From assembly GCA_001873435.1 (NCBI GenBank), contig MNZB01000004.1, positions 307,004 through 371,003 of the forward strand: a stretch of DNA of 64,000 nucleotides, given 5' to 3'. A model generated the notes under the pieces. The model worked only from the letters and a program-made list of their open reading frames with translations. It did no database searches and had not been told where the DNA came from. This stretch comes from Candidatus Pacebacteria bacterium CG2_30_36_39 (lineage in GTDB: Bacteria; Patescibacteriota; Microgenomatia; UBA1400; PJMF01). Both the position numbers and the translations under genes were made by a program. Positions 14,986-32,732 of this stretch are shown here, piece by piece; positions within the stretch are counted from its first letter, which is position 1; every line of letters begins with the position of its first letter.

Positions 14986-16497
14986 CTATATCTTAGAGAT
15001 AGCAGTTAATGACATTCTAAGAGCTGAAATATCTTGTTGTGTCAAGCTTTCTTCTTTTATCTCACTCTCTATTTTATTAATAGCATGTAGAACACTAGTA
15101 TGATCTCTACCCGAGAACCACTTACCAATTTCTTCTAACGGCATATTAAGCTCTTTCCTCAAGAGATACATAGCAGTATGTCTAGCTCCAACAATGTCTT
15201 TAATTCTTCTTTTACCTTTAAGAGCACTTTGTTTGATTCGATAATGATCAGCCACTGTTTTGATAATATCTTGAGGCTTAACACGAAGATTTGGAGAAAT
15301 TGTAGGAGCTTCTGTTTTAAGTAATGATTGAATTAATTCTTCAGTAATTGTTCTTTGTTTTAATTCAACCTCTGATCTTAAAAGTTTAATAATACCCTCA
15401 ATTCTTCTAGCTCCATCTACTTTTGAAGAAATTAATTGTGCCAAATTCATTGGCAAATCTAAATGATTTGCTTGAGCTTTAATTAAAAGGATCGCGGTGC
15501 GAAGTTCAAAAGAGGGTTGTTGAATATCAATCATTAAACCAGCCTCAAATCGAGATCTTAATCTAGATTCTAGTAGATTGATTTCATGAGGAGGGCGGTC
15601 AGAAGTAAGAATAATCTGAGAAGCTTGTTTGGTTAGTGCATTAAAAGTGTGAAAGAATTCTTCTTGAACAGCATTTTTTCCAGCCAAAAACTGAACATCA
15701 TCGATTAAAAGTACCTGGGTATTTCTATATTTTTGTTTAAAATCAAAAGCTCTTTTCTTTTGGATAGCATTAACAATTTCATTTGTAAATTCTTCACCAG
15801 TGCAATAAATAACGTTTGTTTCTGGATTTTGTTTGAGAATATTGTTAGCAATCGCTTGCATTAAATGAGTTTTACCCACTCCAACTCCTCCATATAAGAA
15901 AAGTGGGTTGTAGGCAGCTCCAGGGTTGTTTGAAACGGCTGTGGCAGCAGCATGGGCCATCTCATTAGTAGTTGAAACAGCAAACGTTTTAAAGGTGTAA
16001 TCTAGTCTCAGGCCAATTCTTTTGGCTGCTGTTTTTGATCTATCTTGAAAGCTGGCTTGCAAAGTGTGGGCGGAAAAAAGCTCATCAACAGTAGGAGAGG
16101 TTGAGTTTCCAGAGCTAAAACCATGTAATTGCTGAGTTTTTACTGGCTGAGATGGCAATAAATGAGCTGTTTGACTCAAATTATCAACACTTGATGAAGC
16201 ATTGGGTGTAAATGGTGTGCCTACAATGAATTCTATTTCCACTTTTTTATTTAATTGAGCTTCTAATGTTTCCTTTATTTGGGTATAGAGATTTTTTTTG
16301 AGATTTGTAGCATGAAAAGCAGTGGGGCAAGTAATTGTAGCTAGTGCTTGATTTTGTTGATCAACCTCAACTTTTGTTAATGGATTAGAAACAATCCAGG
16401 TGTTAAAAACAGCGGGAGTAAGTTGTGTTTTTAGAGTTTCTTGAGTGGCCTTCCAGACAGTATTAATTTCATTTTCCTCTAACGTATGAGTAAACAT
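14986..16497 (-). CDS. dnaA: Chromosomal replication initiator protein DnaA.
   Basis: 503 aa. AAA+ Walker A GGVGVGKTHLMQAIAN, box VII, and a C-terminal DNA-binding domain LRKELNMPLEEIGKWFSGRDHTSVLHA. Confidence 0.95.
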   Translation of the reverse strand: MFTHTLEENEINTVWKATQETLKTQLTPAVFNTWIVSNPLTKVEVDQQNQALATITCPTAFHATNLKKNLYTQIKETLEAQLNKKVEIEFIVGTPFTPNASSSVDNLSQTAHLLPSQPVKTQQLHGFSSGNSTSPTVDELFSAHTLQASFQDRSKTAAKRIGLRLDYTFKTFAVSTTNEMAHAAATAVSNNPGAAYNPLFLYGGVGVGKTHLMQAIANNILKQNPETNVIYCTGEEFTNEIVNAIQKKRAFDFKQKYRNTQVLLIDDVQFLAGKNAVQEEFFHTFNALTKQASQIILTSDRPPHEINLLESRLRSRFEAGLMIDIQQPSFELRTAILLIKAQANHLDLPMNLAQLISSKVDGARRIEGIIKLLRSEVELKQRTITEELIQSLLKTEAPTISPNLRVKPQDIIKTVADHYRIKQSALKGKRRIKDIVGARHTAMYLLRKELNMPLEEIGKWFSGRDHTSVLHAINKIESEIKEESLTQQDISALRMSLTAISKI

Positions 16498-16663: not shown

Positions 16664-18712
16664 CTATTCAGTTGGGGGAGAGTAGTCATTAATTGTGTAA
16701 TAACCAGCGTATTGTTTTTGTTTGGCTTTTTGTTCTGTTTCGGCTGCTAGTTTTTCATCTTCATCTTGAATTAGTTGCTTTTCTTGAGGAGCTTGAATAG
16801 GTTCTAACTGTTTTTCTTGTTTTGGTTTGAAAAGTGAAGAGAAGTCTTGTTTTTCTTTCTTTTTAACTTCATCTTCTGCTTCTTTTTGTAATTGAAATTG
16901 CTTGTTTTCCGCCCTTTGTTTGAGAACCTCTTCTGGATTTGTTGTAATAACTTCATGTTCTTCATCGCTAGCCACAACTCTTAAAGCTACGTGGTTTTGT
17001 CCTGCAAAAAATACACCCTCTCCAACGTCAGACGAAACCAGCAATTGTCTTTCTCCCTCAGATAAATAAAATGTTTCAGCTAAAACAGGGATTGAAGCGC
17101 TTGATTGCTTCATTAAAAATTGGATAGAAGCATTACTGACAATAGCTTTTCCATAATCATTATGTAAAAAGTCCTCAACATCTTGAGTAATAGTAGTAAT
17201 TCCTAAATAATATTTACGTGCTCTTTTAACCATAGAGTGAATAAAAGAGGCACTGTCTTTATGCTTCATAAAATACCAGGCTTCATCAATCACTAAAATT
17301 CTACGTTTTAAATTCTTTTTTACTCTAGTCCAAATAAAATCTAGGATAATAAACATAGCAATAGGCCTAAGAGCTTCTTCCATTTCTTTTACAGAAAATA
17401 CTGTAAAAGGATTGGTAATATTCATATTGGATGGTTTATCAAAAATACCTCTAAAGGAACCGGTGATAAACTTTTCAAGTCTAGCAGCAATATCATTAGC
17501 ATCATCATTTTCCATACCAATTAGTGCTTTATATAGATCTTCCATTAGAGGTGGTTCGTTTGTTTGAGTTACTGGATCTGGAGTAATGCCCTTGGCTTTA
17601 TAAGCAGCAATTAAAGCTCTATCTAATAAGGCTTCTTGTTGGGCAGTCATTTCTCCCAACATGACTTTTAGTAATCCGTGTAGGGTAATAACTTTTTGTC
17701 CAAGCTCATTTTCTCCCTCCTCATACATAGCAGAGAGATCAAATGGATTTAGTTTTGTTTCAGAACCAAAGGTGAAGTTAATATATTCTCCGCCAACTTT
17801 TTTAGCTAACTCCTCATATTCGTGTTCTGGGTCAAGAACAATTACTTCAGCATCAAACATTAATTGACGAATAATTTCCAATTTAACAGTATAAGACTTG
17901 CCTGCACCAGATTTAGCGAAAATAACCATGTTGGCATTTTCCATTTTAAAACGATCAAAAATTACCAATGAATCATTATGTTCATTAATTCCATAAAGAA
18001 TTCCAGTTTCCATGGTTAATTCTGAAGAAGTAAAAGGAAAGGTTGTGGCTAGTGACGTAGTATCCATGTTTCTAGTAATCATTAGCTTATCTTTACCCAT
18101 TGGAAGAGTGGTCTTAAAGCCTTCATCCATTTGCAAAGTTGCCTTTTTAGAAACAATAAGCAGAGAACCCAACATTGATTGAATGTTTTTGGTTATTTTA
18201 TCTAAAAACTCCATACTTGGAGCATTCAGAGTTATATATAGACCAAATTGAAAAAATCTCTCTGATCCAGCTGCTAGTTGTTCTCGAATGGACCTAGCAT
18301 CACTTAATTTAATCTCAGTATTAATATTACTAATTTTTCCAGATCTGATGTCAGATTGGATTTCTGCCTCCATCTCAGTAATTTTTCTTTTTAAGTTATC
18401 TAAAACCTCAGAAGAGTCAACGGGATAAACAAACATTGAGATGTTTGCTTGACTAGGAAAGTTAATAAGAGGAGATAACCAGTTGGCTGGAACTGTACGA
18501 GGGTAGCCGGCCACAAAAAGAGTACGGGTGTAAGTAGAGTTAATTTGTTGATAGGTAAAATCAACCTCAATTGCTTCAGGAGCAATAATGTCTTGAATTG
18601 TTACTAGACCTTGAGAAAACTCTTTGATCTTTTCCATCTCTTTTTGTTCTTGAGTTGGTTCTGAAGAGTTATTCGTGGTTTTTTTGCTAAAAAATGGCAA
18701 CTGAAAGGGCAT
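16664..18712 (-). CDS. VirB4/TrsE/PrgJ-family T4SS ATPase, core and C-terminal ATPase portion.
   Basis: 682 aa. ...TRTLFVAGYPRTVPANWLSPLINF...ISMFVYPVD...LKRKITEMEA; Walker A FAKSGAGKSYTVK; Walker B ILVIDEAWYFM. Matches the Gram-positive conjugative VirB4 layout. Confidence 0.85.
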   Translation of the reverse strand: MPFQLPFFSKKTTNNSSEPTQEQKEMEKIKEFSQGLVTIQDIIAPEAIEVDFTYQQINSTYTRTLFVAGYPRTVPANWLSPLINFPSQANISMFVYPVDSSEVLDNLKRKITEMEAEIQSDIRSGKISNINTEIKLSDARSIREQLAAGSERFFQFGLYITLNAPSMEFLDKITKNIQSMLGSLLIVSKKATLQMDEGFKTTLPMGKDKLMITRNMDTTSLATTFPFTSSELTMETGILYGINEHNDSLVIFDRFKMENANMVIFAKSGAGKSYTVKLEIIRQLMFDAEVIVLDPEHEYEELAKKVGGEYINFTFGSETKLNPFDLSAMYEEGENELGQKVITLHGLLKVMLGEMTAQQEALLDRALIAAYKAKGITPDPVTQTNEPPLMEDLYKALIGMENDDANDIAARLEKFITGSFRGIFDKPSNMNITNPFTVFSVKEMEEALRPIAMFIILDFIWTRVKKNLKRRILVIDEAWYFMKHKDSASFIHSMVKRARKYYLGITTITQDVEDFLHNDYGKAIVSNASIQFLMKQSSASIPVLAETFYLSEGERQLLVSSDVGEGVFFAGQNHVALRVVASDEEHEVITTNPEEVLKQRAENKQFQLQKEAEDEVKKKEKQDFSSLFKPKQEKQLEPIQAPQEKQLIQDEDEKLAAETEQKAKQKQYAGYYTINDYSPPTE

Positions 18713-18758
18713 TGTTCTCTATTGTAACCATATTTTTACTAAGACTTGTAGTGCAGAA

Positions 18759-19817
18759 CTATAATTCTGCCACAGGTGGTAATGTTTGATCTACTTTTGG
18801 TTGATTTTGCACCACAATTGGAGCTACTTCAATTTCTTTTTTTACTTCGTTTGGTTGTAAAACTTGATTATTTGCAGTTTTTGCTGCCTCAAAGACTGTT
18901 TGGGTTTGAATTTGAGTAGGTGTTTGTTTTGGAATTTCAACAGGAGTAGTTTGATTTTGCGGGACAACCTGTAAATTTGGTCTTGGAGCAGCTTCTTCTG
19001 GCATTTCCTTTGGTACTACCGCCGAAGCTGCTATTTCAGCAGTTCCTGCTTCCGGCACATCTTTGACGGACTGAATGTTTTCTTTCTTAGAATCATTATC
19101 TTTAGTGAGACTGATTAATGAATTTAAGTCTGGAGCTGTTTGAGCCTGAACAGTCATTGTTTCATAATCTTGACTGTTGGTAATTTGCTGACCCTCATAG
19201 GCCTCTGGGTTATAGCTATTATAGAAAAACTCAATTATTTCTTGAGTTAAGATTTGTCTAGCGAATAAGCCAATTCTATTAAATTGAGCAATTAAGTGAT
19301 CTCTTCTTGGTTCCAGAACTCCAAGGCCCTTTTCTATTACTGCGGCTTTTTGTTCTTTGGTTAGACTAGGAGCACTACTGCCGGGAAGAACACTCTGTGG
19401 TGTAACCATGCCAACCTCTGCAGGAGAAGCAGGAATAGTTACATAGAATTTTTTATCAAGAACATTTCTTTCTTTGATTAATTGACCAACAAAACCCTGA
19501 TATCTTTGAATTAACGCTCTCTTTTCATTAGTAGTGGCTTTTTCAGCTTGAATATCTAATAAACGAAGATAAGCAGTCGCGTCTTTTGTTTTAGAACTAA
19601 TAATAATTTGAATTGGAAAGTTTAGTGAATTAAGGAGTGCGGCGTAGGCATAAATAATTGCATCTTGTTCTTGCTCTGCTAATAAGCCGAAATTCATTGC
19701 ACTGACCATTAAAGTCATGGAAACAGTTCCATCTTTTAAAATAGCTACGTCATTAGAAATATCAAAAATATCTAAAAACTTTTGTGTTGTGGAAGAAATA
19801 TCATCGCCAGCAGACAT
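18759..19817 (-). CDS. VirB4 N-terminal-domain-like protein, encoded separately upstream of the ATPase and carrying a long disordered tail.
   Basis: 352 aa. DISNDVAILKDGTVSMTLMVSAMNFGLLAEQEQDAIIYAYAALLNSLNFPIQIIISSKTKD...KKFYVTIPA resembles the first roughly 150 aa of TrsE/PrgJ-type VirB4. The C-terminal roughly 170 aa is Q/P/T-rich low complexity. Confidence 0.55.
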   Translation of the reverse strand: MSAGDDISSTTQKFLDIFDISNDVAILKDGTVSMTLMVSAMNFGLLAEQEQDAIIYAYAALLNSLNFPIQIIISSKTKDATAYLRLLDIQAEKATTNEKRALIQRYQGFVGQLIKERNVLDKKFYVTIPASPAEVGMVTPQSVLPGSSAPSLTKEQKAAVIEKGLGVLEPRRDHLIAQFNRIGLFARQILTQEIIEFFYNSYNPEAYEGQQITNSQDYETMTVQAQTAPDLNSLISLTKDNDSKKENIQSVKDVPEAGTAEIAASAVVPKEMPEEAAPRPNLQVVPQNQTTPVEIPKQTPTQIQTQTVFEAAKTANNQVLQPNEVKKEIEVAPIVVQNQPKVDQTLPPVAEL

Positions 19818-20964: not shown

Positions 20965-21972
20965 CTATTCAACTTTTACTGCTGGAGTGATAATTTCAGC
21001 GTCTATTATTTTTCCTTCATTGCTAAACAACTTTCCCACAAAGTGATAGAAAGGGTAAGCAATTTTTTGATTTAAGTCAGCTCGATATTCAATAGTAACA
21101 CTAGTTAAATCTCCAGATTCTATTTCTTTTAAAGAGATGGTTCCAGTTTCTTTATTATATGCGGAGATGATTGAAGCTTCTTGTCTATTATTTATATTGT
21201 CTATTGCCTCATTAATTGGAATGGTGGTCAAGTTTTTTTCGGTTAATAGCGGATAAATAAATTTATCTTGGAAAACTATTTTTTGAACTTCATAATCACT
21301 GTTTATTAATACTGATATAGCAGCCTGTTTTTGATGTTCTAGAAACAAGGGGATATTATTAATTGTATAGATGAAAGGTACTTCAATAATTGTTGTTTCA
21401 CCAAAAGATACTTCTCTAAGTTCTCCAATTCCATAAAAACGCTTAATTCCACCTTTGTACATAGTTAAAGGAAGGCTGTTAAAAACAGTTTTTACAAAGT
21501 CTTGAGCAACTTTTGTTGCTTTGTTTGTTTCAGAAATAAGATTGTCTTTTGGTGAGAAATTGGAATAAAAAAGATATGAATCATCTTGAGTATTATATGA
21601 GAGAGTAAACTTCTCACCTTTCCAAAGACCTGGTACATCAGGCACTATTTTTAGTGAATGCTCTTTTATTAATTGATCCTTTAGATATTCAGCTGTAATA
21701 GTGCTGGGACTAATTGTTGCTAACGGATATTTTGGTTTTGCTTCTGGAACTTCACCTGTAAAACGAATATTTTTAAATCTGGTTTGATCTCCGCCATTAT
21801 TTGTTATTACAAAATCTGTTTTGGGAATTATTGTTTCTTTTGGAGTAAAAATAGTAAAGAGTGTTGTTAAAACTAAGCCAACAACACTAATTCCAATCAA
21901 TATCACATACCATTTTTTTTCAGCTAAAAATGTTTTTTGAGTTTTATTCATAACATGTCCTAACTGGATCAT
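20965..21972 (-). CDS. Bitopic membrane protein; a possible VirB8-like T4SS component.
   Basis: 335 aa. Single N-terminal TM WYVILIGISVVGLVLTTLFTIF with a large extracytoplasmic domain. The call rests on position in the cluster only. Confidence 0.3.
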   Translation of the reverse strand: MIQLGHVMNKTQKTFLAEKKWYVILIGISVVGLVLTTLFTIFTPKETIIPKTDFVITNNGGDQTRFKNIRFTGEVPEAKPKYPLATISPSTITAEYLKDQLIKEHSLKIVPDVPGLWKGEKFTLSYNTQDDSYLFYSNFSPKDNLISETNKATKVAQDFVKTVFNSLPLTMYKGGIKRFYGIGELREVSFGETTIIEVPFIYTINNIPLFLEHQKQAAISVLINSDYEVQKIVFQDKFIYPLLTEKNLTTIPINEAIDNINNRQEASIISAYNKETGTISLKEIESGDLTSVTIEYRADLNQKIAYPFYHFVGKLFSNEGKIIDAEIITPAVKVE

Positions 21973-24900
21973 TTACTTTAACACTTGCTCCGTCTGGCAT
22001 TAAAGATGGTAAAGTTCCAGAATTTGGTGGACTACCAATTAAACCAAAATGTAGGTGAGGGCCAGAAGAATTACCAGTATTTCCCATGACTCCTAAAATT
22101 TCTCCAGCAGAAACACTTTTGCAAGAAAGAGTGTTTGAAGATCTCATGTGAGCTAATACAAAACTACCTTCAGCAGATTTTAAAACCACATGAATTCCAT
22201 AGCCTGGATCCATATTTCCAGGACAGGCTTCTCCATCAAAAGGAGCAAAAATTGGTGTACCTTCGCTATTAGCAATGTCAAAAGCATCAACTCTCTGATG
22301 TGAATAACTACCACCTGGTAGCTGAGTAATAGTTCCACTGGCGGGCCAACAACCAGCACCTTGAGAATAATCACCGATATAAACTACTTCACCAGTAATA
22401 GCGTTATCAGTGCCTTCCACACCCGTTTCTGGATCCTTAGCGAAGATTTTTAAATCAAAAGTATTTAAAATTGAGGCATTATCATATTTTTCATCAAATG
22501 TTTCTGAATAAGAGAGAACAACCGACTCTCCTGGAGTAATAACCATTTCCTCATATAATTCTGGAAAGTCAGTTAAATTTTTTATTCTATCTGGAATTGT
22601 TGGGGGAGTTTTGCCCTCCTCTTCCCAAGCCTTTTTGCTGTGGTTAACTTTTAAGGTGTCTTTGGCATCTAAAACTTGTAAAGTAAAGTTTCCTTTTGGA
22701 GTAATAGTGATCGTGTATTCAACTTTTAAAGGAAAGGCTGGGTTTTCACATTTGTTTTCTGGACAACCAGCAATAAATGCTCTTTTTTCAATAGTGACAT
22801 ATTCTGACTCTTTGCCCGGAGTAGAACCAGAAACAGTACTTAGAGGATCAACAATGGGGAAGTTGGCTAATAGAGCACCAGATTGAACGGCGTGTAAAAG
22901 TAGATTTCCCCCAGTAATTAAACCAGCTGATGTTAATACTGCTTGGGTTGCGATGTGGGTTACTGATTTGGTTACAATTAAATTTGAATGGGGAATGGCA
23001 TTGTTGATTGCTGCTTTTTTTGCCAAAGCGCTATTTGCAGCCGAGATCGATGAACTAGTGCTTGGAACATGAATGGCTGACGCACTTTTGGCACCACTAA
23101 ATAAATCACCAAACCATTTTTCTGCACCATATCCAAGCCAACCTCCACCAATGGCTCCAGCCAAGGCTCCGCCTGGGCCTCCAAAAATACCTCCCAAAAC
23201 TCCACCAAGGGTTGCACCAATACGACCACCCCATGTTAGTAGTGGAACAATCAAAGATCCAAGTCCTAAGCCACCACCAATTAATAAGGCCTGGCGACCC
23301 TTTTTTGTGGTAGCTATTTTTGCAAAGAAACCAAGAGCTGGGTGAATAGCTGTTCCAGCAGCAGCAGCTCCACTGCTCAAACCAGCTTCTGCAGCCTTTT
23401 CAGCCGCTTTAGCAGCTGCCTTTTTACTTAGTCTTGAGCTAACACCATTAATTCCTCTTTTGAGTTTGTTTCCCAATCCAGCCGTTTGTTTTCTAAAAGA
23501 TTTAATACTAGATAGTGGAGACCTAATAACTCCAGCTTGGGGAATGTATTGAGATTCATAGCCGTTGGCTTGAGATTGATCGTAAGATGCTGCGGCTCCG
23601 CCAATTAGAGGAGCTAAATCATGAATTGCTAACTCTCGTGGAACAAAATTAACATCATTGGCAATGTTTTTAACTGCATTGCCACCGGCTTCTCCATACC
23701 CCAAAGCAACGAGAATTTGTTCTCTTTCTTCGTATTGTATGTTTTCCCAGACACTTTTTAAAAAAGCTTCTTTTTTCTTACTATCTATTAGTGGGCTTTT
23801 ACCGTTGGTTAGTTCAACTATTTCTCCTGGGTTGGAAGAAATAGCTTTTGCTCCAACCATGGTTTTGTTAGTTGGAGCTGCTACTCCTCTAGCAAAAACC
23901 TGATTACTTTTACTAGCTGATATCTCGCCCTTGCTTTTATCTAGTAAATCTAGGGCTTCTCTAGTAGCAAATCTAGCTTCATTGTGTAATAAGATTTGTC
24001 CAGTTTTTCGGCCAAGAATTGATCTGCGAGCAATCCAAATTTCTTGTAATGATTCATAAATATCTGGTCTAAAAGGTATTTCATCACCAAAAATCAAGCG
24101 AAAGCGACCTTCATCAATGTATTTTAATAGTTCAATTGGGTAGGCCTGATCAATCCAGGAATCAATTACGTTAACAACGTTTGTTTTTGAAAGTGCCAAA
24201 CGATCGTCTCTAACACCAATTCTTCGAAGCTCTGTTTCAAGTAGCTTGTCTGTTTCTTTGGTTAGATAGTCAACGTCTCCGCTAGCAAGTTTGTCTCCAG
24301 AGAGACTAGTTAAGATTTCTTGTTCTTTAGAATTTTCAAAAACCCCAGAAAAACTTTGAATAAGGGGGCTTATATCTTCTCCCTGAGAGGCTCTTTCAAT
24401 TGCATTTTCTATTTGTTCTTTAATTTTGGGGTCGGTATTTCCTTTAACTATGTCTTCTAGTCTGTTTGAGATTAAAGAAGTGGTACGAAAATCGTTTTGT
24501 ACCATCCAAATATATTCTCGAATGAGAGTTAGTCTAGTTTCTGGATCAAGTAGGTTTTTATGTTTTCCATCTCCAATTACGGTAAGGAAAAAACCAGTTG
24601 TTTTTTGTGAAAGTAACTCACGAAGTTCTCTAGAATTCTGTAGGGTTCCAGGCGGTAATTTATGAAAAATTTCTAATTGAACAAGGGCTATTTCAGTAAA
24701 ATTAACAGACTGCTCTCTTAAAGCCGGACTAAATAGTTGGCTTTTAATATCAAGTAATTCTTCTGGTTTTGTTTCTTTTTTTTCTTCTAGTGGTCTATTT
24801 TCTTCGTCTTTACCTTCGTTTTCAGCGTTTTCTTCCTCGTTTTCTTGAGCCTGAGTAGTTCCGGTTGCAACCACTGCTGTATCCACCGATTGGGTTTCTT

Positions 24901-25450
24901 CTTCGTCCTCCTCTTTTTCTTCTTCTTCCTCTTTTTTTTCTGTTTTTTCTAAAGCGGCGATTAAAAATCTGGCTACTGGTTTAATATAGTCAGTTAATAA
25001 TGAGTTGAGATAGCGATCATCGTCTTTTGAAATTTCTAGATCAAAATCATGTGATTTACAGTAATCAATAATGGCAGTGGCTTTTTTTAGAACATCCGTT
25101 GGGGCTTCTTTTGTATAAAAAGATAGGATTGTTTGTGGATCGCCGCCTATTAATTTGTAATAAATGTCAGCGAATAAAAAAGCTAAATCGCTTTTATATA
25201 AAAAGAAGCCGGGATCTTCTTTGTCTTTCTCATCAGTGTCTTTTCTGTTTTTAGTTGTGTAATAGAGAGTGTCTAGGGAATAACTTTTAAAGAGTTGTGC
25301 ATACGAAAAATTGATTTGGGCTTCTTCTTTAATGTCTGTGTTGAGAATTAGTTTTAAAAAACCAATTGCTGATTCTTTGGTTAAACCATCAACAGCTCTT
25401 TTTAAAGCATAACGACCATTAGCTAGTGTGTATGAAGCATCATCAGCCAT
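21944..25450 (-). CDS. Giant transmembrane protein with a C-terminal M23 (LytM) peptidoglycan endopeptidase domain; a T4SS-associated cell-wall hydrolase of the PrgK/TraG class.
   Basis: 1168 aa. C-terminus GSYSHQRVDAFDI...GIHVVLKSAEGSFVLAHM...MGNTGNSSGPHLHFGL, the M23 HxxxD / HxH motifs. Central Gly-rich TM region GGGLGLGSLIVPLLTWGG...GGIFGGPGGALAGAIGGGWLGYG. Acidic N-terminal cytoplasmic part of about 700 aa. Confidence 0.7.
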   Translation of the reverse strand: MADDASYTLANGRYALKRAVDGLTKESAIGFLKLILNTDIKEEAQINFSYAQLFKSYSLDTLYYTTKNRKDTDEKDKEDPGFFLYKSDLAFLFADIYYKLIGGDPQTILSFYTKEAPTDVLKKATAIIDYCKSHDFDLEISKDDDRYLNSLLTDYIKPVARFLIAALEKTEKKEEEEEKEEDEEETQSVDTAVVATGTTQAQENEEENAENEGKDEENRPLEEKKETKPEELLDIKSQLFSPALREQSVNFTEIALVQLEIFHKLPPGTLQNSRELRELLSQKTTGFFLTVIGDGKHKNLLDPETRLTLIREYIWMVQNDFRTTSLISNRLEDIVKGNTDPKIKEQIENAIERASQGEDISPLIQSFSGVFENSKEQEILTSLSGDKLASGDVDYLTKETDKLLETELRRIGVRDDRLALSKTNVVNVIDSWIDQAYPIELLKYIDEGRFRLIFGDEIPFRPDIYESLQEIWIARRSILGRKTGQILLHNEARFATREALDLLDKSKGEISASKSNQVFARGVAAPTNKTMVGAKAISSNPGEIVELTNGKSPLIDSKKKEAFLKSVWENIQYEEREQILVALGYGEAGGNAVKNIANDVNFVPRELAIHDLAPLIGGAAASYDQSQANGYESQYIPQAGVIRSPLSSIKSFRKQTAGLGNKLKRGINGVSSRLSKKAAAKAAEKAAEAGLSSGAAAAGTAIHPALGFFAKIATTKKGRQALLIGGGLGLGSLIVPLLTWGGRIGATLGGVLGGIFGGPGGALAGAIGGGWLGYGAEKWFGDLFSGAKSASAIHVPSTSSSISAANSALAKKAAINNAIPHSNLIVTKSVTHIATQAVLTSAGLITGGNLLLHAVQSGALLANFPIVDPLSTVSGSTPGKESEYVTIEKRAFIAGCPENKCENPAFPLKVEYTITITPKGNFTLQVLDAKDTLKVNHSKKAWEEEGKTPPTIPDRIKNLTDFPELYEEMVITPGESVVLSYSETFDEKYDNASILNTFDLKIFAKDPETGVEGTDNAITGEVVYIGDYSQGAGCWPASGTITQLPGGSYSHQRVDAFDIANSEGTPIFAPFDGEACPGNMDPGYGIHVVLKSAEGSFVLAHMRSSNTLSCKSVSAGEILGVMGNTGNSSGPHLHFGLIGSPPNSGTLPSLMPDGASVKVNDPVRTCYE

Positions 25451-25497: not shown

Positions 25498-27228
25498 CTA
25501 GATTAGATTGGCTATAAAACCACCTAGTGTTTCTGCTGGTTTGTTAATTATTGGCATGGTTTTTTTGGGAAAACTAGGGTTTATAGGAGAGCTATTTTTA
25601 GTAGAACTAGCATAATTTGGTGGTGATTTGTAATTCATTTCGCAACTCAAGCACCAATCACATTCTCCAATCCAAGTATTTAATGATCCACATCTCACGC
25701 AACTTCCCATACTCCAATCTTTAGCTCTGTCTGATCCAATGTATTTAGCCAAATCTTTTCTAGATAAACTTGCAAAATCAAAACTTCCCCTTAATTTAAT
25801 TAATTGCTGAACGCTTCCAATTGGACTTAGGGCAACACATTCAATTAGTGAAGTATTGAATGCTTTGGTGGCTGATGAAAAATTAAGATTTTTTGCAAGA
25901 GAAAGAGCAAAAGCTTCTTCACCTAAATTACCATATTTTTTGAAGTGTTCAAAAATTGAAACGCGTTTTTTACTTGATATTTTTTTGACATCCAGTATTC
26001 CAGCTAAAACAACTCTTTTAATAAATATTCCCAATTTGTTAACAGTATTAGTTTCCAGGTTTGGGTCGTTTTTTAATTCGTCTGAAAAAGTATCTAATAC
26101 TAATTCAGCATATTCCTTGAGAGCTGGTTCCATTTTTTCTATTTTTTTACGAGTGATTTTTTGTCTTATTTTTTTAAAGAATTTATTTTCTGGGAAAATT
26201 TCCAAAAATGTGTCAGAGGCAGTTTTTTCTTGAAAATTATTTGGTAAAGTTATTAGCTGTTCCATTACAAATTTTTCTTTGGCTTTGAAATCTAAATCAC
26301 TAAAGTTTTCAGGAACAGATATCCCTAATTTGGTAAATAGTTTTTTATGATCTGACCAATCTCTTGGCGCCATGTGTTGATCATGTAAAAGAATAAAGCG
26401 GTTTAGACTGGGAATAAATATTGGTTGAGCAATTACCATGACGCTTAGGTTGCCTTCATGTACTTCTGATTGTGGCATTAGATAGAGGTATTTTGGGCCA
26501 ATAGTAATTGGTTCTATTTGTTCAGTTAAACCCATTTTTCTTCTAACTTCAGGGCGAATAAATTGAAAAGAATCGGTTGGTGATAAGGTTTTCCAGCCTT
26601 TATTTTCCAGGATTTTTTGAGTTTTATTTTCTGGATTTCTGTTTGTTTTGACTTCTTTTTTATCTTCACTTATTAAAGCTATCCAGGCGTGTGGGGATTG
26701 ATTGAATAAGTCTCTGATGTTTAAAAGTAGCTGTTCTATTTGTTGTTTTTCCAATAAATAACGGTCTTTTTCTGCTTGATTGATGACTAAGGATTGAACA
26801 GCATCTTCACAGATTTGAAGTAAGTCTGGCCTGAGTTTGTATACATCGTCATAGAGAGCAATTTCCCCGGATTCTTTTTGAGCGATGTCATAGGCTAGGT
26901 GAGTAATTGGCAGTCTTTGGGTTTCAGATAATATGGAGCGAAAAAAATAGATTAGTAGATCGATTTGTTGTTGGCGATTTTTTATTGGTAGAACTTCTTT
27001 GATTAAAAAATTTAATATGACAATGATCTTGTCTTGTTCTGGGTTGGGGATTTCTTTGGTTGTTAAGTTTTCAGTTTCTGGTTTTTCCAACCTAGAAAGA
27101 TCGCTTAATTCATTGACTAAAGAAGCCGAAAAAATACCTCCTGTGTCAATAGAGCTTAATTCTTTAAAGCCAAATGTTGGTAAAAGTTGGTCGGTTGTGG
27201 TTGGTGTAAATGTTTGTTCTGATAACAC
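25498..27228 (-). CDS. Hypothetical protein with a C-terminal Cys4 zinc-ribbon. GTG start.
   Basis: 576 aa. ...CVRCGSLNTWIGECDWCLSCE. No other motif recognised. The start codon is GTG at 27228-27226. Confidence 0.35.
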   Translation of the reverse strand: MLSEQTFTPTTTDQLLPTFGFKELSSIDTGGIFSASLVNELSDLSRLEKPETENLTTKEIPNPEQDKIIVILNFLIKEVLPIKNRQQQIDLLIYFFRSILSETQRLPITHLAYDIAQKESGEIALYDDVYKLRPDLLQICEDAVQSLVINQAEKDRYLLEKQQIEQLLLNIRDLFNQSPHAWIALISEDKKEVKTNRNPENKTQKILENKGWKTLSPTDSFQFIRPEVRRKMGLTEQIEPITIGPKYLYLMPQSEVHEGNLSVMVIAQPIFIPSLNRFILLHDQHMAPRDWSDHKKLFTKLGISVPENFSDLDFKAKEKFVMEQLITLPNNFQEKTASDTFLEIFPENKFFKKIRQKITRKKIEKMEPALKEYAELVLDTFSDELKNDPNLETNTVNKLGIFIKRVVLAGILDVKKISSKKRVSIFEHFKKYGNLGEEAFALSLAKNLNFSSATKAFNTSLIECVALSPIGSVQQLIKLRGSFDFASLSRKDLAKYIGSDRAKDWSMGSCVRCGSLNTWIGECDWCLSCEMNYKSPPNYASSTKNSSPINPSFPKKTMPIINKPAETLGGFIANLI

Positions 27229-27511: not shown

Positions 27512-30500
27512 ATGGTAGAAGCTGGAAAATTTGCTCCACTAAAAGAAGTTATTAAAAAAGTTGAAAAATACTTTTCGTTAAGTGAGCTTTTTATTTCTCT
27601 AGAAGGATTTCCCAAAGAACAAAACTTGGTCAAGATATTGACTAGTATTGAAGATCGTATCTTTGATGAAGATGGGGAATTAACTGATAGGGCTGATGAC
27701 GAGACATATATATTATTGGTTTCAAAAATTTGCAAAGAAGCGCTGGCTGTTTTTACTCAGATAGAAGAAACAGCTAGAAGAAATGCTGAAAAAGAAGCAA
27801 TGGCTGGTCTTACCGGAGCCAAATTTAAAATGGAAGCTATTGTTGGTATTAAGAAAACCACAAAAAATAAAGAGGTCATGGTTGTTGCAGATTTAATGAG
27901 AGGTGTAATTTATACATACCTAAATAAGTTGGCTGAAGAAGGATTGTTGACGACTGAAGATATGACTGAGCTAGGTTTTACAAAGAATGATGTTGATGTT
28001 ATTTCCAAAAATTTAATAGAAAAATCAAAAGAAGAAATGGATGCTTGGAAAAATGGTGAAGCAGAAGTTCAATTTCCAATACTAACTGAATTAAGAGATA
28101 TCATTCTAGAAACTCCAACAACAAAGGATGAAATATTGGATTTACAACAGAGGATAACTGATTTGAGTAGTGAAACAAAAAGCCAATTGGTGGCTGCAGG
28201 AGTTGTTGGTGATAAATATCAATTTATAGAAACTACATTTTTTGTTCCGGCTGAACAAAAAATGATGGAATTGACTAAAGAAAAGACAAGACTAGAAGAA
28301 GAAGAAGCATCTGAAGAAAAAAATAGAGAAACTCAAGAAGCTATTGCTGAGTTTCGATCAAAGACAGCTTTATTTGAAGCTGCAATTAAAAATATTCCCC
28401 TAGAGAGAAAAGATCTAACTACTATCTGGGAACCAAGATCACCAGGTAGTCCTGAATTAATTGAAAAACCATTTAATCCAATTGATCAAAAAGATAATAA
28501 GCGTTTTTCCAAACAATTAAAAGAATTGGAAAGAAGAAGAAATATTCTTTTGGAAGAAAAACAAAAATTAGAAAATGCTGATGCTTTTAAAAAAGCTGAT
28601 GCAGACAAACTTGGTTCTACTGAAATAAACAAGGTTATTGATGAGATGCTTCGTAGGTTTGAAGAGGTTTCTAGAAGAGTTAATTCATTAATTGAAGAAG
28701 CAAAAAAACCTCCCATTGAAGAAATGACTATTACCGACTTGGCAGACGAGTTGATTAGGGAAAGAAGAGATCCCTTTTTCTGGAAAGAATTTAAATCATC
28801 TGCGGTTGGTTCAGATAGAATTAATCAGGTAATTAATGCTTTCATTGGTGAGATTGGTAAAAGAAAAGAAAATGATCCAGAAGCTGAAATAAACAGAATT
28901 GTTCAAAAAGTAAGAGTACAGTTATCTACTTTAAGTAACGAACTACAACATGAGGATGAAAAGGCTTCTCGTGATAGAAGTAGATTATGGACAGAGGCAG
29001 CAAAAAGAATTTTAACTCGTAGAGAGTTACTTATTGCCACAACATATAACCCAAAATGGGGCAATCAAATAAGAGAAATGTTGGAGTGGGCTACTAGAAC
29101 TGCAGCATTAAATCCTGGGGAAGTTGTAGTGAAAAGGAATGGAAAATTAGTTGTTATTCCTACTGACGGGACAGTTGTAGTGGATGAGAATGGAGTGGTA
29201 AATAAGATTCCTAACCCTGTCAAAGATGGAAATGAGGGTTGGCCGGAATTAAAACCAGGTGAAAAAATATTATACTCATATGATCGATCAATGGACTACA
29301 ACGAGTTGGCTGGTGAAAATGGTTCTACTAATTTAACAAAAAAACTTAAAGAGAAGTTTAAAGATTACGCAGAAGACCCAGAGATGGCCTATGCAATGCA
29401 GTTTGCTTTTGATTTATTTGTATCTTTTGATTTGTTAACTATTTCTCTCGGAGAACTGCAAAAAAGAACCAGAACAAGAGCTCACAATGGTGCTGTTAAA
29501 GATAAAGATCGCATCATGTTCCATGATCCTTTGGCATCAGCAATCCATAGAGCCTATAGATATGGTGGAAATAAATATGACTGGTCATTGAGAATTCTTG
29601 TATTTTTTGAAAAATTTGGAAAAAGTGGCCAATTCCAATATGGTAAAGACAAATCAAAGGTAAGTAAAAAAGTTAGAGAGAGCAAACATTATCAAAGTGA
29701 TCATGAAAAAATCATTGAATTACAAGATATGTTGGTAGATCATCAAGATATTTTTTATGATGCAAGCGCTTTTGCTGGGAAAATTCCACTTCCCGGATTT
29801 TGTGAAACAGTTGGTATTAGTACCTATGACTTTTTAACCCTTCATGGACCAGAGGATACTCAAGGCACTGGTGGAAAGGGAGAAAAATTGTGGTTATTTG
29901 ATCATTTAATTGATTATCAAAATAGAACCATTCCTGGTAGCGAAAAGGATGCAGAAGATCCAGATGCTGTCGATTTGGCTTCTGATTTGGATGAAATTGA
30001 AGATTTGACAGAAGAAACAAAGGAAATTCTCAGGTCAATAAACCTAACAAATATATTCTTGTTAAAAGCACGTCGAGCAGACTTAATTGAGGATGAAATT
30101 TTCAAAAATTTAAGTGAAGATCAACAGAAAATAATTCTTAAAGCAACTGAGGAAGCAGTAAAAATTCCAGATGGAGAGAAAGTTGACAAGGCAGCAAGTA
30201 TAGAACTTTATGCATTGGCTGAGGAAAATGGCTTTGCTCAATTGCTTGAGTTAACTTTCAAAAAAATGGGGCCTGTAACTGAAGAGCACATTTTACGTAA
30301 AACAAAAGATGGCGGTAAAGGTGGATTGCTTGGAGAATGGTTGCAAACAGCTGGAAGAGCAAAGATGTTTCCATCAAGTCAACTTAGATTATTTTTAGCT
30401 CCCTTATTAACTAATTTTGTAATGAGACTTTTTCAAAATTTTGAAGGAAAAGGTAATGAGGCAGAAAGAGAAACTCTTTTCAAAGATGTTGTTGATGAAC

Positions 30501-30943
30501 TAAGAGACTCAATGGAAGCTGGTGGACTTTCTTCATATAAAAGAGAAGTTACTAGCGTAATCAATGCAATTTGTGAACGTCCAATTTATGAGGCTGTACC
30601 AAGAGATAAATCAAATCCATATGGAAGTTATGACATAGTTGAGACTGGGAACAAACAAAAACAATCCAAATCAATCCAACCTTACGAAAATTGGAGGTTA
30701 CATAAAAGAGATAATTATCTTAAAAAATGGTATCCACATGAGCATCATGGCGAGGCTCCTCCAGCCACAGTTCTCGGGTTGAGTGCAGAAGCAATAGTTC
30801 ATCCACTAAAAACCTTAAAAAAGAGTTTGAGGGGTAAAAATCCAGCGGAAGCTGAATTTTTGAAAATGATGGCTGGTGAAGAAGAAATTCCTGATTTAGT
30901 TGAGAGATCTGGCAGTTTAATTCAAACAAGCAGTGAAGAATAA
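27512..30943 (+). CDS. Large soluble E/K-rich coiled-coil protein of unknown function.
   Basis: 1143 aa. No TM and no signal peptide. Highly charged with long predicted coiled-coil stretches. Embedded in the T4SS-like locus. Confidence 0.35.
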   Translation: MVEAGKFAPLKEVIKKVEKYFSLSELFISLEGFPKEQNLVKILTSIEDRIFDEDGELTDRADDETYILLVSKICKEALAVFTQIEETARRNAEKEAMAGLTGAKFKMEAIVGIKKTTKNKEVMVVADLMRGVIYTYLNKLAEEGLLTTEDMTELGFTKNDVDVISKNLIEKSKEEMDAWKNGEAEVQFPILTELRDIILETPTTKDEILDLQQRITDLSSETKSQLVAAGVVGDKYQFIETTFFVPAEQKMMELTKEKTRLEEEEASEEKNRETQEAIAEFRSKTALFEAAIKNIPLERKDLTTIWEPRSPGSPELIEKPFNPIDQKDNKRFSKQLKELERRRNILLEEKQKLENADAFKKADADKLGSTEINKVIDEMLRRFEEVSRRVNSLIEEAKKPPIEEMTITDLADELIRERRDPFFWKEFKSSAVGSDRINQVINAFIGEIGKRKENDPEAEINRIVQKVRVQLSTLSNELQHEDEKASRDRSRLWTEAAKRILTRRELLIATTYNPKWGNQIREMLEWATRTAALNPGEVVVKRNGKLVVIPTDGTVVVDENGVVNKIPNPVKDGNEGWPELKPGEKILYSYDRSMDYNELAGENGSTNLTKKLKEKFKDYAEDPEMAYAMQFAFDLFVSFDLLTISLGELQKRTRTRAHNGAVKDKDRIMFHDPLASAIHRAYRYGGNKYDWSLRILVFFEKFGKSGQFQYGKDKSKVSKKVRESKHYQSDHEKIIELQDMLVDHQDIFYDASAFAGKIPLPGFCETVGISTYDFLTLHGPEDTQGTGGKGEKLWLFDHLIDYQNRTIPGSEKDAEDPDAVDLASDLDEIEDLTEETKEILRSINLTNIFLLKARRADLIEDEIFKNLSEDQQKIILKATEEAVKIPDGEKVDKAASIELYALAEENGFAQLLELTFKKMGPVTEEHILRKTKDGGKGGLLGEWLQTAGRAKMFPSSQLRLFLAPLLTNFVMRLFQNFEGKGNEAERETLFKDVVDELRDSMEAGGLSSYKREVTSVINAICERPIYEAVPRDKSNPYGSYDIVETGNKQKQSKSIQPYENWRLHKRDNYLKKWYPHEHHGEAPPATVLGLSAEAIVHPLKTLKKSLRGKNPAEAEFLKMMAGEEEIPDLVERSGSLIQTSSEE

Positions 30944-31007: not shown

Positions 31008-32732
31008 TTAGTCAACTGCTTTATCAGTTGCTCTTGGATGTGGCTTAGTAGTTCCGCCCTCTTTTTTATTAAGAAGTTTATCAAGTATTTTGGTTGAATC
31101 TTGAGGGTCAAATAAATTTCCACTTCTTGCTTGATCAAAAAATACACGACCCTTTTTGCCTGTTTCAACATCGCCGCTCCATCCTTGTAGAACTCCACCG
31201 GCTCTAATGTCTCGGCCATTCTCATCTTTCTCTCCAGTCTTAGCTCCTCGCCATAAGCTATCTGTAAGAAATGCTCTTGGGTTTTGTCTACCATACGACA
31301 TAATTCCAGCCTTTGCTGCACCTCCAACCGCACCAATTGCACCCGTTGCCAATGGCAAAGCAGGTTCTCCAGCTGCCATATTTTTAACAGCTTTAAAGGC
31401 CAAGGTTTCCCAAATACCACCATCAATTTTCATGGCTTTTTTCATTTCAACAATCAACTCTGGAATTACCAAAATAATACCTATGCCAACCAAAGTCATA
31501 ATAACTCCTCCGGACCCGCGACCAATTAAATATGGAGGTAAGAATCCACCACTATTAATATCTCCCTTGGTAAACAATTCATAGAGAATTAGAGAAAATA
31601 AAACCATTGGAAAAGCCATTAGGTTGCCAAAAACAATCTTTATCCAATAACCAAAATTACTTTTTCCTGGTAAAGCTCCCATCATTAATAAAACTGGAGC
31701 AACAACTATAGCAATAATTATGGTGATATAAATTTTGAGAAGATCAAAGAATAATTTGAATACGCCAATTAAAATAGCAACGGAGACGATTAAACCCAAT
31801 GTAAGACCCCCCAGCCATCCCAAAACATCTCCAACAGCGCCCGTATCAATGGCACCAGCAAAGCTCTTAACTGCTTCATTCATATTAGCAAAAGCACCAC
31901 TGCCATTAACTCCAGTTACCAAATCCCAGCCAATTTGTAAGAAGTTTTTACTAAGCAAATCAACACCACTATCTGGTCTGAATAAACCAATCATTAAATA
32001 CATAATTAAATACATCAAATCAATTAAAAATCCAGCGATGGCATAAGAAAAAGTGACGAAAATTAAAGAAACAATAATTCCAGGAATAGCTTGTTGAGCC
32101 GTAACCACGGTTTGTCCACCAAGATTTTGACGGAACATGATCATAAAACCAATAACCAGGAAAATTACTACAAAAAAGAAATAAGCAATGTTGCGGAACA
32201 CTTTCCAAGCCTCAAGTACTGGATCAAGTGAAGAGAAGCCCAATCCCTGAGCATGTGCTTGAGGAATAATATGAGCATCTTCCAATAAAGTGGCCACATA
32301 GGTAACTCCAGAGGCTGGAGGATTATAAAGCATGGCCAAAGCTTGAGTTGTTTCACCAATCGCTCCGCGTCCATATTTAGCATAAACAATCTTTTTTTGT
32401 TCATCAGTCATTTTTTGCACAGTTGGAGAATTTTCTGGCACGCCATTTAATTTTAAATAAGCATCTGCCTCCCAAGCATTTGATGTTTCTGGAACAAAAG
32501 AATTGAGTGAGACAGCTCCTGTTTCATCGGCGGCAACCTGTGCCTCAAGAGTATTGCTGGTATTTTGTTCAATGCCAGTAACCTCCATAAACCACTGGAC
32601 TAAGTCAAGGGCTTTAACAGGTTTAGCAGTCAAAAAAGATGCTGTAATAAAGAAGGCTATGAGAATAATTAACCGGGTGAGGCTTTTCATTGCTTTTATA
32701 TTGTACGTCAAGAAAACAAAAAGCAAAACCAT
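31008..32732 (-). CDS. VirB6/TrbL-like polytopic membrane protein.
   Basis: 574 aa. Signal peptide MKSLTRLIILIAFFITASFLTA (the likely true start is this Met, about 32690), a periplasmic domain of about 150 aa, at least 6 TM helices, and a hydrophilic C-terminal tail. The architecture resembles the VirB6, TraL or PrgH class. Confidence 0.45.
   Translation of the reverse strand: MVLLFVFLTYNIKAMKSLTRLIILIAFFITASFLTAKPVKALDLVQWFMEVTGIEQNTSNTLEAQVAADETGAVSLNSFVPETSNAWEADAYLKLNGVPENSPTVQKMTDEQKKIVYAKYGRGAIGETTQALAMLYNPPASGVTYVATLLEDAHIIPQAHAQGLGFSSLDPVLEAWKVFRNIAYFFFVVIFLVIGFMIMFRQNLGGQTVVTAQQAIPGIIVSLIFVTFSYAIAGFLIDLMYLIMYLMIGLFRPDSGVDLLSKNFLQIGWDLVTGVNGSGAFANMNEAVKSFAGAIDTGAVGDVLGWLGGLTLGLIVSVAILIGVFKLFFDLLKIYITIIIAIVVAPVLLMMGALPGKSNFGYWIKIVFGNLMAFPMVLFSLILYELFTKGDINSGGFLPPYLIGRGSGGVIMTLVGIGIILVIPELIVEMKKAMKIDGGIWETLAFKAVKNMAAGEPALPLATGAIGAVGGAAKAGIMSYGRQNPRAFLTDSLWRGAKTGEKDENGRDIRAGGVLQGWSGDVETGKKGRVFFDQARSGNLFDPQDSTKILDKLLNKKEGGTTKPHPRATDKAVD

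Follow-up and report, generated by a model that had tools for sequence, protein, structure and literature searches.

A probable two-gene VirB4 ATPase in a chromosomal type IV secretion cluster of Patescibacteria

The subject of our study is a pair of adjacent minus-strand genes in a 64,000-nucleotide stretch of the genome of Candidatus Pacebacteria bacterium CG2_30_36_39 (contig MNZB01000004.1, positions 307,004 to 371,003; hereafter the window), which we call ORF1 (352 amino acids) and ORF2 (682 amino acids) after their open reading frames (ORFs). We find that the two genes very probably constitute a conserved two-gene VirB4 in a chromosomal type IV secretion system (T4SS) close to the replication origin: in this reading, ORF1 is the initial half of the VirB4 N-terminal domain, detached from the rest, and would rebuild VirB4 together with ORF2. 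VirB4 is the one universal ATPase of T4SSs, and the T4SS of Patescibacteria, a phylum of ultra-small bacteria, is reported to be essential for their epibiotic life.

The two-gene split is the conserved, published norm in this phylum, and the locus in the window is an instance of the pattern set out by Quinonero-Coronel et al. 2025 (Microb Genom; PMC12102498). The basic fact is thus already in print, and our findings confirm and sharpen it with the minor additions of an explicit complementarity between the two products, rare re-fused variants, and conserved terminal motifs flanking a disordered tail. Knowledge of a two-piece motor aids annotation, as the small gene is “hypothetical” in the public records inspected; the natural re-fusions mark the joint and can guide the design of expression constructs for structural work; and the comparison helps to interpret TrsD/TraD, a protein that has been without an assigned function ever since the era of pGO1 and pIP501.

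An earlier note on this DNA, written from the sequence alone, had proposed that VirB4 is split, with its N-terminal domain encoded by a separate upstream ORF with a long disordered tail, and had offered 3 explanations: genuine gene fission, an inserted linker plus frameshift or pseudogenization, and a sequencing error. The split is borne out by complementary NCBIfam matches, colinear fused proteins, the match of an AlphaFold model to TrwK, and a profile match to TraD, and it is genuine fission that the evidence supports. Both ORFs, their coordinates, and the 46-bp gap between them are as the note had given them, and the peptide that it quoted (AILKDGTVSMTLMVSAMNFGLLAEQEQDAIIYAYAALLNSLNFPIQII) is present in ORF1. 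The features of the gene pair are:

18759..19817, minus strand: ORF1, 352 amino acids, ATG start; TrsD-like, listed under Pfam PF26593 “TraC-like” in precomputed tables; putative detached N-terminal piece of VirB4
19134..19817, minus strand: conserved, predicted folded domain of ORF1 (residues 1-228), corresponding to the first half of the VirB4 N-terminal domain
18783..19133, minus strand: variable low-complexity tail of ORF1 (residues 229-345), predicted to be disordered
18762..18782, minus strand: C-terminal peptide LPPVAEL-COOH of ORF1 (residues 346-352), also at homologue C-termini
18713..18758, minus strand: intergenic spacer between ORF1 and ORF2, 46 bp, with stops in all relevant frames
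16664..18712, minus strand: ORF2, 682 amino acids, ATG start; N-terminally short VirB4 ATPase of the CD1110 / MPF-FATA type
18680..18712, minus strand: N-terminal peptide MPFQLPFFSKK of ORF2 (LPF...KK motif), conserved in a comparison with the N-termini of 40 homologues
17894..17917, minus strand: Walker A motif AKSGAGKS of ORF2 (residues 266-273), inside the P-loop_TraG and DUF87 matches
17276..17299, minus strand: Walker B motif ILVIDEAW of ORF2 (residues 472-479)
16667..16879, minus strand: K/E/Q-rich C-terminal tail of ORF2 (residues 612-682; K 17%, E 15%, Q 14%)

ORF2 as an N-terminally short VirB4

Judged by its sequence, ORF2 is a VirB4 ATPase without about the first 175 positions of full-length models. 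It scores 390.5 bits (E 1.5e-116) on the NCBIfam model conju_CD1110 (NF045971, hereafter CD1110), above the cut-off of 325, in an alignment that covers positions 177-734 of 752 and leaves ORF2 residues 1-28 unaligned. Other full-length VirB4 models are covered at 272-893 of 894 (VirB4_plasma), 215-742 of 800 (TraC-F), and 233-726 of 792 (VirB4_CagE). With coverage only from position 177 of CD1110 onward, ORF2 alone is not a complete VirB4.

As the earlier note had seen, ORF2 carries the VirB4 core and both Walker motifs, and its Pfam matches are P-loop_TraG, AAA_10, DUF87, and CagE_TrbE_VirB. The last of these, at ORF2 residues 56-204, represents the distal two-thirds of its model and the second half of the VirB4 N-terminal domain, which limits the proposal that ORF1 is this domain to the first half of it. 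The best homologues of ORF2 have 626-755 amino acids, are 71-87% identical to it, and all come from Patescibacteria, so that a short VirB4 is the rule in the phylum. At the other end of the protein, the alignments to VirB4 models and to the fused protein P0319 (see below) stop near residue 611, and the C-terminal extension of about 70 amino acids gives this system another low-complexity tail besides that of ORF1.

Public annotations place the start of ORF2 differently, giving 682 amino acids (JGI; OIP73890.1) or 657 amino acids from Met26 (GCA_002772855.1; locus L009, 7181-9154), and a conserved N-terminal motif upstream of Met26 (see below) favors the ATG at 18712 and thus the longer form. 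Proteins identical to those of the gene pair are deposited as hypothetical (OIP73891.1 and OIP73890.1) from Candidatus Pacebacteria bacterium CG2_30_36_39 and relatives.

ORF1 as the missing segment

The conservation profile of ORF1 separates residues 1-228, which are about 60% identical among homologues with dozens of invariant residues, from a variable remainder. The resemblance of its beginning to the VirB4 N-terminus, on which the earlier note had remarked, lies well beyond chance, and the conserved part of ORF1 measures about 228 residues instead of the roughly 150 suggested there. VirB4_plasma matches ORF1 residues 22-128 on its positions 115-233 of 894 (E 4e-7), and CD1110 matches residues 24-129 on its positions 15-120 of 752 (E 2e-3), such that ORF1 covers precisely the region of the VirB4 models that is absent from ORF2. 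The identification of ORF1 residues 1-228 as the missing N-terminal segment of VirB4 is thereby supported, and the VirB4_plasma match, together with 50% identity to the N-terminal part of P0319, rules out an ORF1 unrelated to VirB4.

ORF1 also resembles a family of small T4SS proteins, TrsD/TraD. Its residues 20-83 match positions 24-92 of the 201 positions of the TrsD model NF041427 (23.1 bits, E 5.3e-5), and a profile of 140 ORF1 homologues aligns by hhalign with Staphylococcus aureus TraD over 175 columns (probability 94.6%, E 6.8e-8); this TraD itself scores 227.6 bits on NF041427 and is a bona fide TrsD. Precomputed Pfam tables assign PF26593 “TraC-like” to a protein identical to ORF1 at E ≤ 1e-5. 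Our local Pfam copy assigned no family to ORF1, to S. aureus TraD, or to a 304-amino-acid protein of Bacillus cereus, in contrast to the listing of PF26593 in the precomputed tables, and the PDB returned nothing, even at E ≤ 10, when all its chains were searched by sequence with the ORF1 family profile. Homologues of ORF1 are numerous: a library of 90% clusters contains more than 1,975, and in the 50% library 2,539 cluster representatives reach E ≤ 1e-3; among 150 listed representative matches, all but one are stand-alone proteins of 133-715 amino acids that match at or near their N-terminus.

Structure prediction points in the same direction. The AlphaFold model of ORF1, built with a 140-sequence alignment, has a predicted local distance difference test score (pLDDT) above 90 at residues 11-210, and the top 14 Foldseek matches of this model in the PDB are all chains of R388 TrwK/VirB4 (probability 0.97-1.00, about 185-192 aligned columns, root mean square deviation down to 4.5 Å), while the next-ranked matches have probabilities below 0.3. 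An earlier model from a shallower alignment gave the same ranking. The predicted fold of ORF1 thus resembles a solved VirB4.

Natural fusions of the two pieces

The clearest view of the joint comes from Patescibacteria proteins in which both pieces are one chain. P0319 is a VirB4 of 787 amino acids (MEK7091100.1, from a metagenome-assembled genome) that occurs in at least 3 independent assemblies and spans positions 3-735 of 752 of CD1110 as one stretch. Its residues 6-199 are 50% identical to ORF1 residues 7-203 (ORF1 profile match E 1.8e-63), and after a linker of 13 residues it continues with 62% identity to ORF2 residues 43-611. The gene (locus L003) lies near dnaA and dnaN, with a PrgI gene directly ahead of it and an M23 peptidase gene behind it. 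A second fused lineage is represented by P0403/P0519 (772 amino acids; HKC14515.1) and the partial proteins P0407, P0411, and P0421.

In the fused relative, the ATPase domain begins near residues 400-430, which corresponds to TrwK 445 and to the C-terminal domain of 4AG5 (match E 4e-52). Together with the fold match, this placement indicates that the VirB4 N-terminal domain is divided near its middle, with ORF1 as roughly its first half and ORF2 beginning with the second. The nearest cores to that of P0319 (86% identity) are short, and the one inspected, at locus L008, is preceded by a tail-less ORF1 homologue of 198 amino acids that overlaps virB4 by 4 bp (ATGA). Since P0319 is nested among split relatives and such an overlap exists, it is best read as a secondary re-fusion through a small deletion at the overlap.

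Conservation of the two-gene form across species

Comparison of orthologous loci, which the earlier note had called for, yielded a uniform picture. We surveyed one genome per GTDB species and obtained 80 loci, 74 of them with enough flanking sequence to be informative; in all 74, virB4 follows the ORF1 homologue as a gene of its own on the same strand, and none of the pairs is fused. The gaps between the two genes range from -20 to +576 bp and occur in all 3 relative frames, with a median of 16 bp among the 69 pairs that could be re-extracted cleanly and that form the set for the motif analysis below. Beyond this species-level sample, the identical ORF1 protein is found on 37 contigs and the identical ORF2 on 30 (NCBI, JGI, ENA, and Logan).

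Many GTDB-representative records with this locus bear titles such as “uncultured Pseudomonadales”, “Vitreimonas sp.”, “Methylococcaceae”, “Limisphaerales”, or “candidate division TM6” (CP011212.1), among them loci L012, L013, L058, L073, L080, and L086. These titles are probably errors of taxonomic labeling and not true occurrences outside Patescibacteria.

Related systems and the direction of the split

The systems described in PMC12102498 share with the locus in the window the phylum, the gene pair, a PrgI/VirB3-like and an M23/VirB1-like protein, the proximity to dnaA, and the relationship of TrsD to the VirB4 N-terminus, which that paper describes as remote homology. TrsD is reported there as the most abundant T4SS component of Patescibacteria, with 2,272 homologues of which 1,664 lie beside virB4, and a TrsD homologue is listed as essential in Ca. 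Southlakia epibionticum ML1, the species whose essential T4SS locus was described by Wang et al. 2023. In its accessible text, we found no explicit statement that the partner VirB4 lacks an N-terminal segment and no mention of fused variants, of a variable disordered tail, or of terminal peptide motifs. PMC12102498 cites Guglielmini et al. 2014 for the homology of TrsD and VirB4; the term “TrsD” does not occur in the main text of that study, and the statement may stand in a figure or supplement.

The same break point is found on plasmids of firmicutes. In the staphylococcal pGO1/pSK41-type systems with TrsD/TraD and TrsE/TraE (CP051960.1), a soluble TraD of 227 amino acids is encoded directly upstream of a TraE of 670 amino acids that begins at CD1110 position 183, compared to 177 for ORF2. 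This TraD is about 22% identical to ORF1 and has neither a disordered tail nor LPPVAEL, and the staphylococcal system differs further in being plasmid-borne and in serving true conjugation with a relaxase. We take the gene order of pIP501 to be traC-traD-traE as well.

The megaplasmid of Pontibacillus sp. ALD_SL1 (NZ_CP062975.1) encodes, in this order, a VirB3/TraL-like protein, a protein of 274 amino acids that matches the ORF1 profile with 99.6% probability (E 2e-23), a VirB4 of 621 amino acids, and an M23 peptidase of 1050 amino acids; its VirB4 begins at CD1110 position 172 and, with 36.5% identity, matches ORF2 best among plasmid proteins. On B. cereus pPER272, PrgI is followed by the 304-amino-acid protein mentioned above, which matches the ORF1 profile at E 6.3e-5, and by a VirB4 of 699 amino acids. 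Unlike the locus in the window, these 2 are firmicute plasmid loci with a different gene order and short tails. The shared break point in pGO1-type plasmids, pPER272, and the Pontibacillus megaplasmid implies that the split arrangement is older than Patescibacteria. For pIP501, a 2025 FEMS review describes traC (VirB3) as immediately adjacent to traE (VirB4) (PMC12857230). The staphylococcal locus has traD directly upstream of traE, and the small piece seems to have been overlooked in the translocon section of that review.

One-piece VirB4 proteins are represented by the PrgJ/CD1110 family (Enterococcus faecalis pBE16_2, 793 amino acids) and by R388 TrwK (PDB 7O41, 8RTB, and 8RTD). ORF1 and ORF2 together cover their full model, the ORF1 fold matches TrwK, the ATPase domain is conserved, and a VirB3/PrgI gene likewise precedes; the difference is that they are single polypeptides without a low-complexity insertion at the break point. 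The VirB3-VirB4 fusions of some conjugative systems indicate that the contacts between VirB3, the VirB4 N-terminus, and the core tolerate shifted gene boundaries (PMC12102498). Such fusions are the opposite event, and that paper reports none from Patescibacteria.

These comparisons bear on the direction of the event. It is unlikely, though the best-surviving alternative to fission, that two separate genes, for the small protein and the short ATPase, were the ancestral state and that the one-piece VirB4 arose by fusion, which would leave the functional picture unchanged. P0319, nested among split relatives, illustrates how readily fusion occurs at the joint, and all near outgroups that were sampled (Pontibacillus, B. 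cereus, and S. aureus) are split; in a rough, sparsely sampled, distance-based neighbor-joining tree of VirB4 cores, these split firmicute systems branch closest to the Patescibacteria clade among the outgroups, and P0519 is basal. Against an ancestral separation, the fold of ORF1 matches the N-terminal part of proteobacterial TrwK, and all NCBIfam VirB4 models of distant MPF classes (TraC-F, VirB4_CagE, CD1110, and the mycoplasma model) are one-piece, with about 175-270 positions N-terminal of the ORF2 start. A one-piece ancestor with fission in the branch of pGO1-like systems and Patescibacteria is therefore more parsimonious, and we infer the direction at the base of the tree on these grounds.

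A proposed two-piece motor

In the mechanism that we consider most likely, ORF2 is the ATPase core, in which the motor domain with Walker A and B follows the second half of the N-terminal domain, and ORF1, related to TrsD/TraD and listed under PF26593 “TraC-like”, would contribute the first half of that domain. The genes for the VirB3-like PrgI protein, ORF1, and ORF2 form one apparent operon, and the folded domain of ORF1 would assemble non-covalently with ORF2 into a complete VirB4 N-terminal domain. ORF1 may in this way link the motor to its likely anchor partner, the PrgI-like membrane protein whose gene lies just upstream, and its tail is a lineage-variable, predicted disordered extension that ends in the conserved LPPVAEL. 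The proposed association and coupling follow from the exact complementarity, the viable natural fusions, and the fixed order of PrgI, ORF1, and ORF2. They would agree with what is known of R388, where the VirB4 N-terminal domains link dimer protomers, are embedded in the inner membrane, and make contact with VirB3 and VirB8 (PMC12857230), and with the typical adjacency of virB3 and virB4 genes (PMC12857230).

Several observations weigh against this reading. At 23 bits, ORF1 falls far below the 200-bit cut-off of TrsD NF041427 and is therefore a distant relative of TrsD, not a member by the NCBI threshold. Its direct similarity to the N-termini of one-piece firmicute VirB4 proteins is weak, as seen in the modest CD1110 E-value, and hhalign of ORF1 profiles against a single E. 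faecalis VirB4 gave E 0.012-0.074 at low probability, with the correct region (residues 32-104) aligned; these values are not significant, and the assignment therefore relies on the NCBIfam models, the fused natural variants, and structure. The E-values of the Foldseek matches are borderline (4e-3 to 5e-2), and the output does not give the aligned residue ranges of TrwK. Binding of ORF1 to ORF2 is indirectly deduced from complementarity, fused variants, and the R388 literature. Finally, the tail and its motif are missing from some functional-looking orthologues such as that at L008, from which it follows that they are not essential to the core mechanism.

A slightly less probable alternative than ancestral separation is that ORF1, though homologous to the VirB4 N-terminus, is an independent accessory or regulatory T4SS protein, such as an adaptor, a substrate receptor, or an assembly chaperone acting through its tail motif. 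Adaptor and tethering proteins typically end in this way, in a conserved peptide on a long, variable, disordered tail, TrsD homologues of Gracilibacteria are reported to be unlinked to virB4, and no function has ever been assigned to TrsD (PMC12102498). However, the segment absent from ORF2 is exactly that of ORF1, natural fusions hold both in one chain with a linker of only about 13 amino acids, and the tail-less 198-amino-acid orthologue overlaps virB4 by 4 bp. Complementarity, fusions, and overlap are more in keeping with a structural partner in stoichiometric amounts than with a free accessory factor.

By far the weakest rival, breakage of a single virB4 by a frameshift, an inserted linker, pseudogenization, or a sequencing or assembly error, could point to the adjacency of ORF1 and ORF2 on one strand in different frames and to the real existence of such errors (at locus L007, a related fused gene is shattered), but is so improbable as to be negligible in view of the identical protein pair on 30-37 independent contigs, the separate genes, with gaps of various lengths and frames, in 74/74 informative species-level genomes, the conservation of both products, the insufficiency of one indel to join the ORFs, and the conserved terminal motifs on both sides of the break. 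Recurrence in independent assemblies and species thus excludes the options that the earlier note had listed beside fission. Regarding the indel, the frames of ORF1 and ORF2 differ (46 mod 3 = 1), a TAG stop closes ORF1, and a second TAG lies 3 codons before the ORF2 ATG in the frame of ORF2, so that a single insertion or deletion cannot join them. Programmed frameshifting or stop read-through to a fused product was also considered and rejected, as it would need TAG read-through plus a change of frame, with stops in the path.

One candidate for a recently split relative of the fused form, P0399 (324 amino acids), was rejected as a fragment of the fused VirB4 at L007 (ENA ERZ1286166 contig_2270). 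This contig is ridden with frameshifts, and we discarded P0399 as an assembly error because virB4, dnaA, and dnaN are each broken into several small ORFs.

The disordered tail and two terminal motifs

The low-complexity tail that the earlier note had ascribed to ORF1 exists, at a total of about 124-140 amino acids instead of about 170 and rich in P/V/Q/E/A/T (P 12%, V 12%, Q 10%, E 10%, A 10%, T 8%) instead of Q/P/T. AlphaFold gives ORF1 residues 211-352 a pLDDT of 42-67 without secondary structure, and column conservation in the tail is low. Among ORF1 orthologues, its length varies from about 18 to 480 amino acids, and it is absent from the 198-amino-acid orthologue at L008. An origin from tandem repeats was considered and rejected, as there are no tandem repeats at the DNA level.

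In spite of this variability, the last residues, LPPVAEL-COOH, are invariant in ORF1 and its close relatives; acidic-hydrophobic variants of this peptide include LPPLPEI, PPIAEI, and PFVVEEL. The motif class P-x-[VILP][APV]E[LI] is found in 44 of the 69 orthologous tails, compared to 0.07 expected from composition-preserving shuffles. On the other side of the break, a hydrophobic-basic start of the form MPxxLPFxxKKK occurs in 65 of the 69 VirB4 orthologues (2.5 expected by shuffling); in ORF2, the peptide MPFQLPFFSKK is followed by a Q/E-rich linker, and VirB4 homology sets in at about residues 29-43. The two terminal motifs co-occur (counts 43/1/17/8; Fisher p 9e-4, uncorrected for phylogeny). 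Neither of them is described in the papers that we consulted.

LPPVAEL probably docks on a partner. A more specific proposal, possible but on the whole doubtful, is that the terminal motifs at the break form an interaction module, in which they might dock on each other, and which regulates the assembly of the VirB4 halves or recruits a third partner; this partner could be a substrate, the M23 hydrolase, or the PrgI ectodomain protein. If true, motor assembly in the T4SS of Patescibacteria would be a controllable step and not constitutive.

Gene order and surroundings of the locus

The genes around the pair are:

21944..25450, minus strand: protein of 1168 amino acids with Peptidase_M23 at its C-terminus (residues 1056-1137); VirB1-like role
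20965..21972, minus strand: protein of 335 amino acids with one predicted transmembrane (TM) helix
19870..20889, minus strand: PrgI/VirB3-like membrane protein of 339 amino acids, directly upstream of ORF1
14986..16497, minus strand: dnaA, by its ORF translation and the Pfam labels of identical genes at loci L009 and L010
13605..14714, minus strand: dnaN, identified in the same way

In the direction of the minus strand, the order is thus M23 protein, single-TM protein, PrgI/VirB3-like protein, ORF1, ORF2, dnaA, and dnaN. The contiguity of PrgI, ORF1, ORF2, the M23 protein, and dnaA/dnaN corresponds to what characterizes the chromosomal T4SSs of Patescibacteria in PMC12102498, where the clusters are often near dnaA and usually without a relaxase; we saw no relaxase domain among the neighboring ORFs scanned, which were part of the ORFs of the window. 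The cumulative GC skew has its minimum at about 13-15 kb, beside dnaN and dnaA, with rnpA and yidC downstream, and this minimum together with dnaA/dnaN directly downstream of the pair indicates that the T4SS cluster abuts the likely replication origin.

The order PrgI, TrsD-like protein, VirB4 recurs at L008, and PrgI precedes the fused VirB4 at L003. The remaining T4SS-like cluster in the window spans 20965..25450 (minus strand), and the same gene set adjoins VirB4 on the Pontibacillus megaplasmid and at L003 and L008. ORF1 and ORF2 are likely co-transcribed: no minus-strand terminator-like site was found in the spacer at 18713-18758, and promoter-like sites between the two genes are at chance level only.

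The PrgI-like protein matches Pfam PrgI at residues 5-83 (27.2 bits, cut-off 27) and CarboxypepD_reg at residues 258-327, with TM helices predicted at residues 21-40 and 43-70. It is much longer than PrgI of pCF10 (about 117 amino acids), as a long linker leads to a C-terminal CarboxypepD_reg/transthyretin-like domain, and this architecture suggests a VirB3 with an extracellular Ig-like module. The PrgI homologue at L008 has 262 amino acids and the same weak CarboxypepD_reg match. Beyond the cluster lie 3 ORFs without a Pfam match, at 25498-27228 (minus strand, 576 amino acids), 27512-30943 (plus strand, 1143 amino acids), and 31008-32732 (minus strand, 574 amino acids, 8 TM helices), the last of which could be a divergent VirB6-like candidate.

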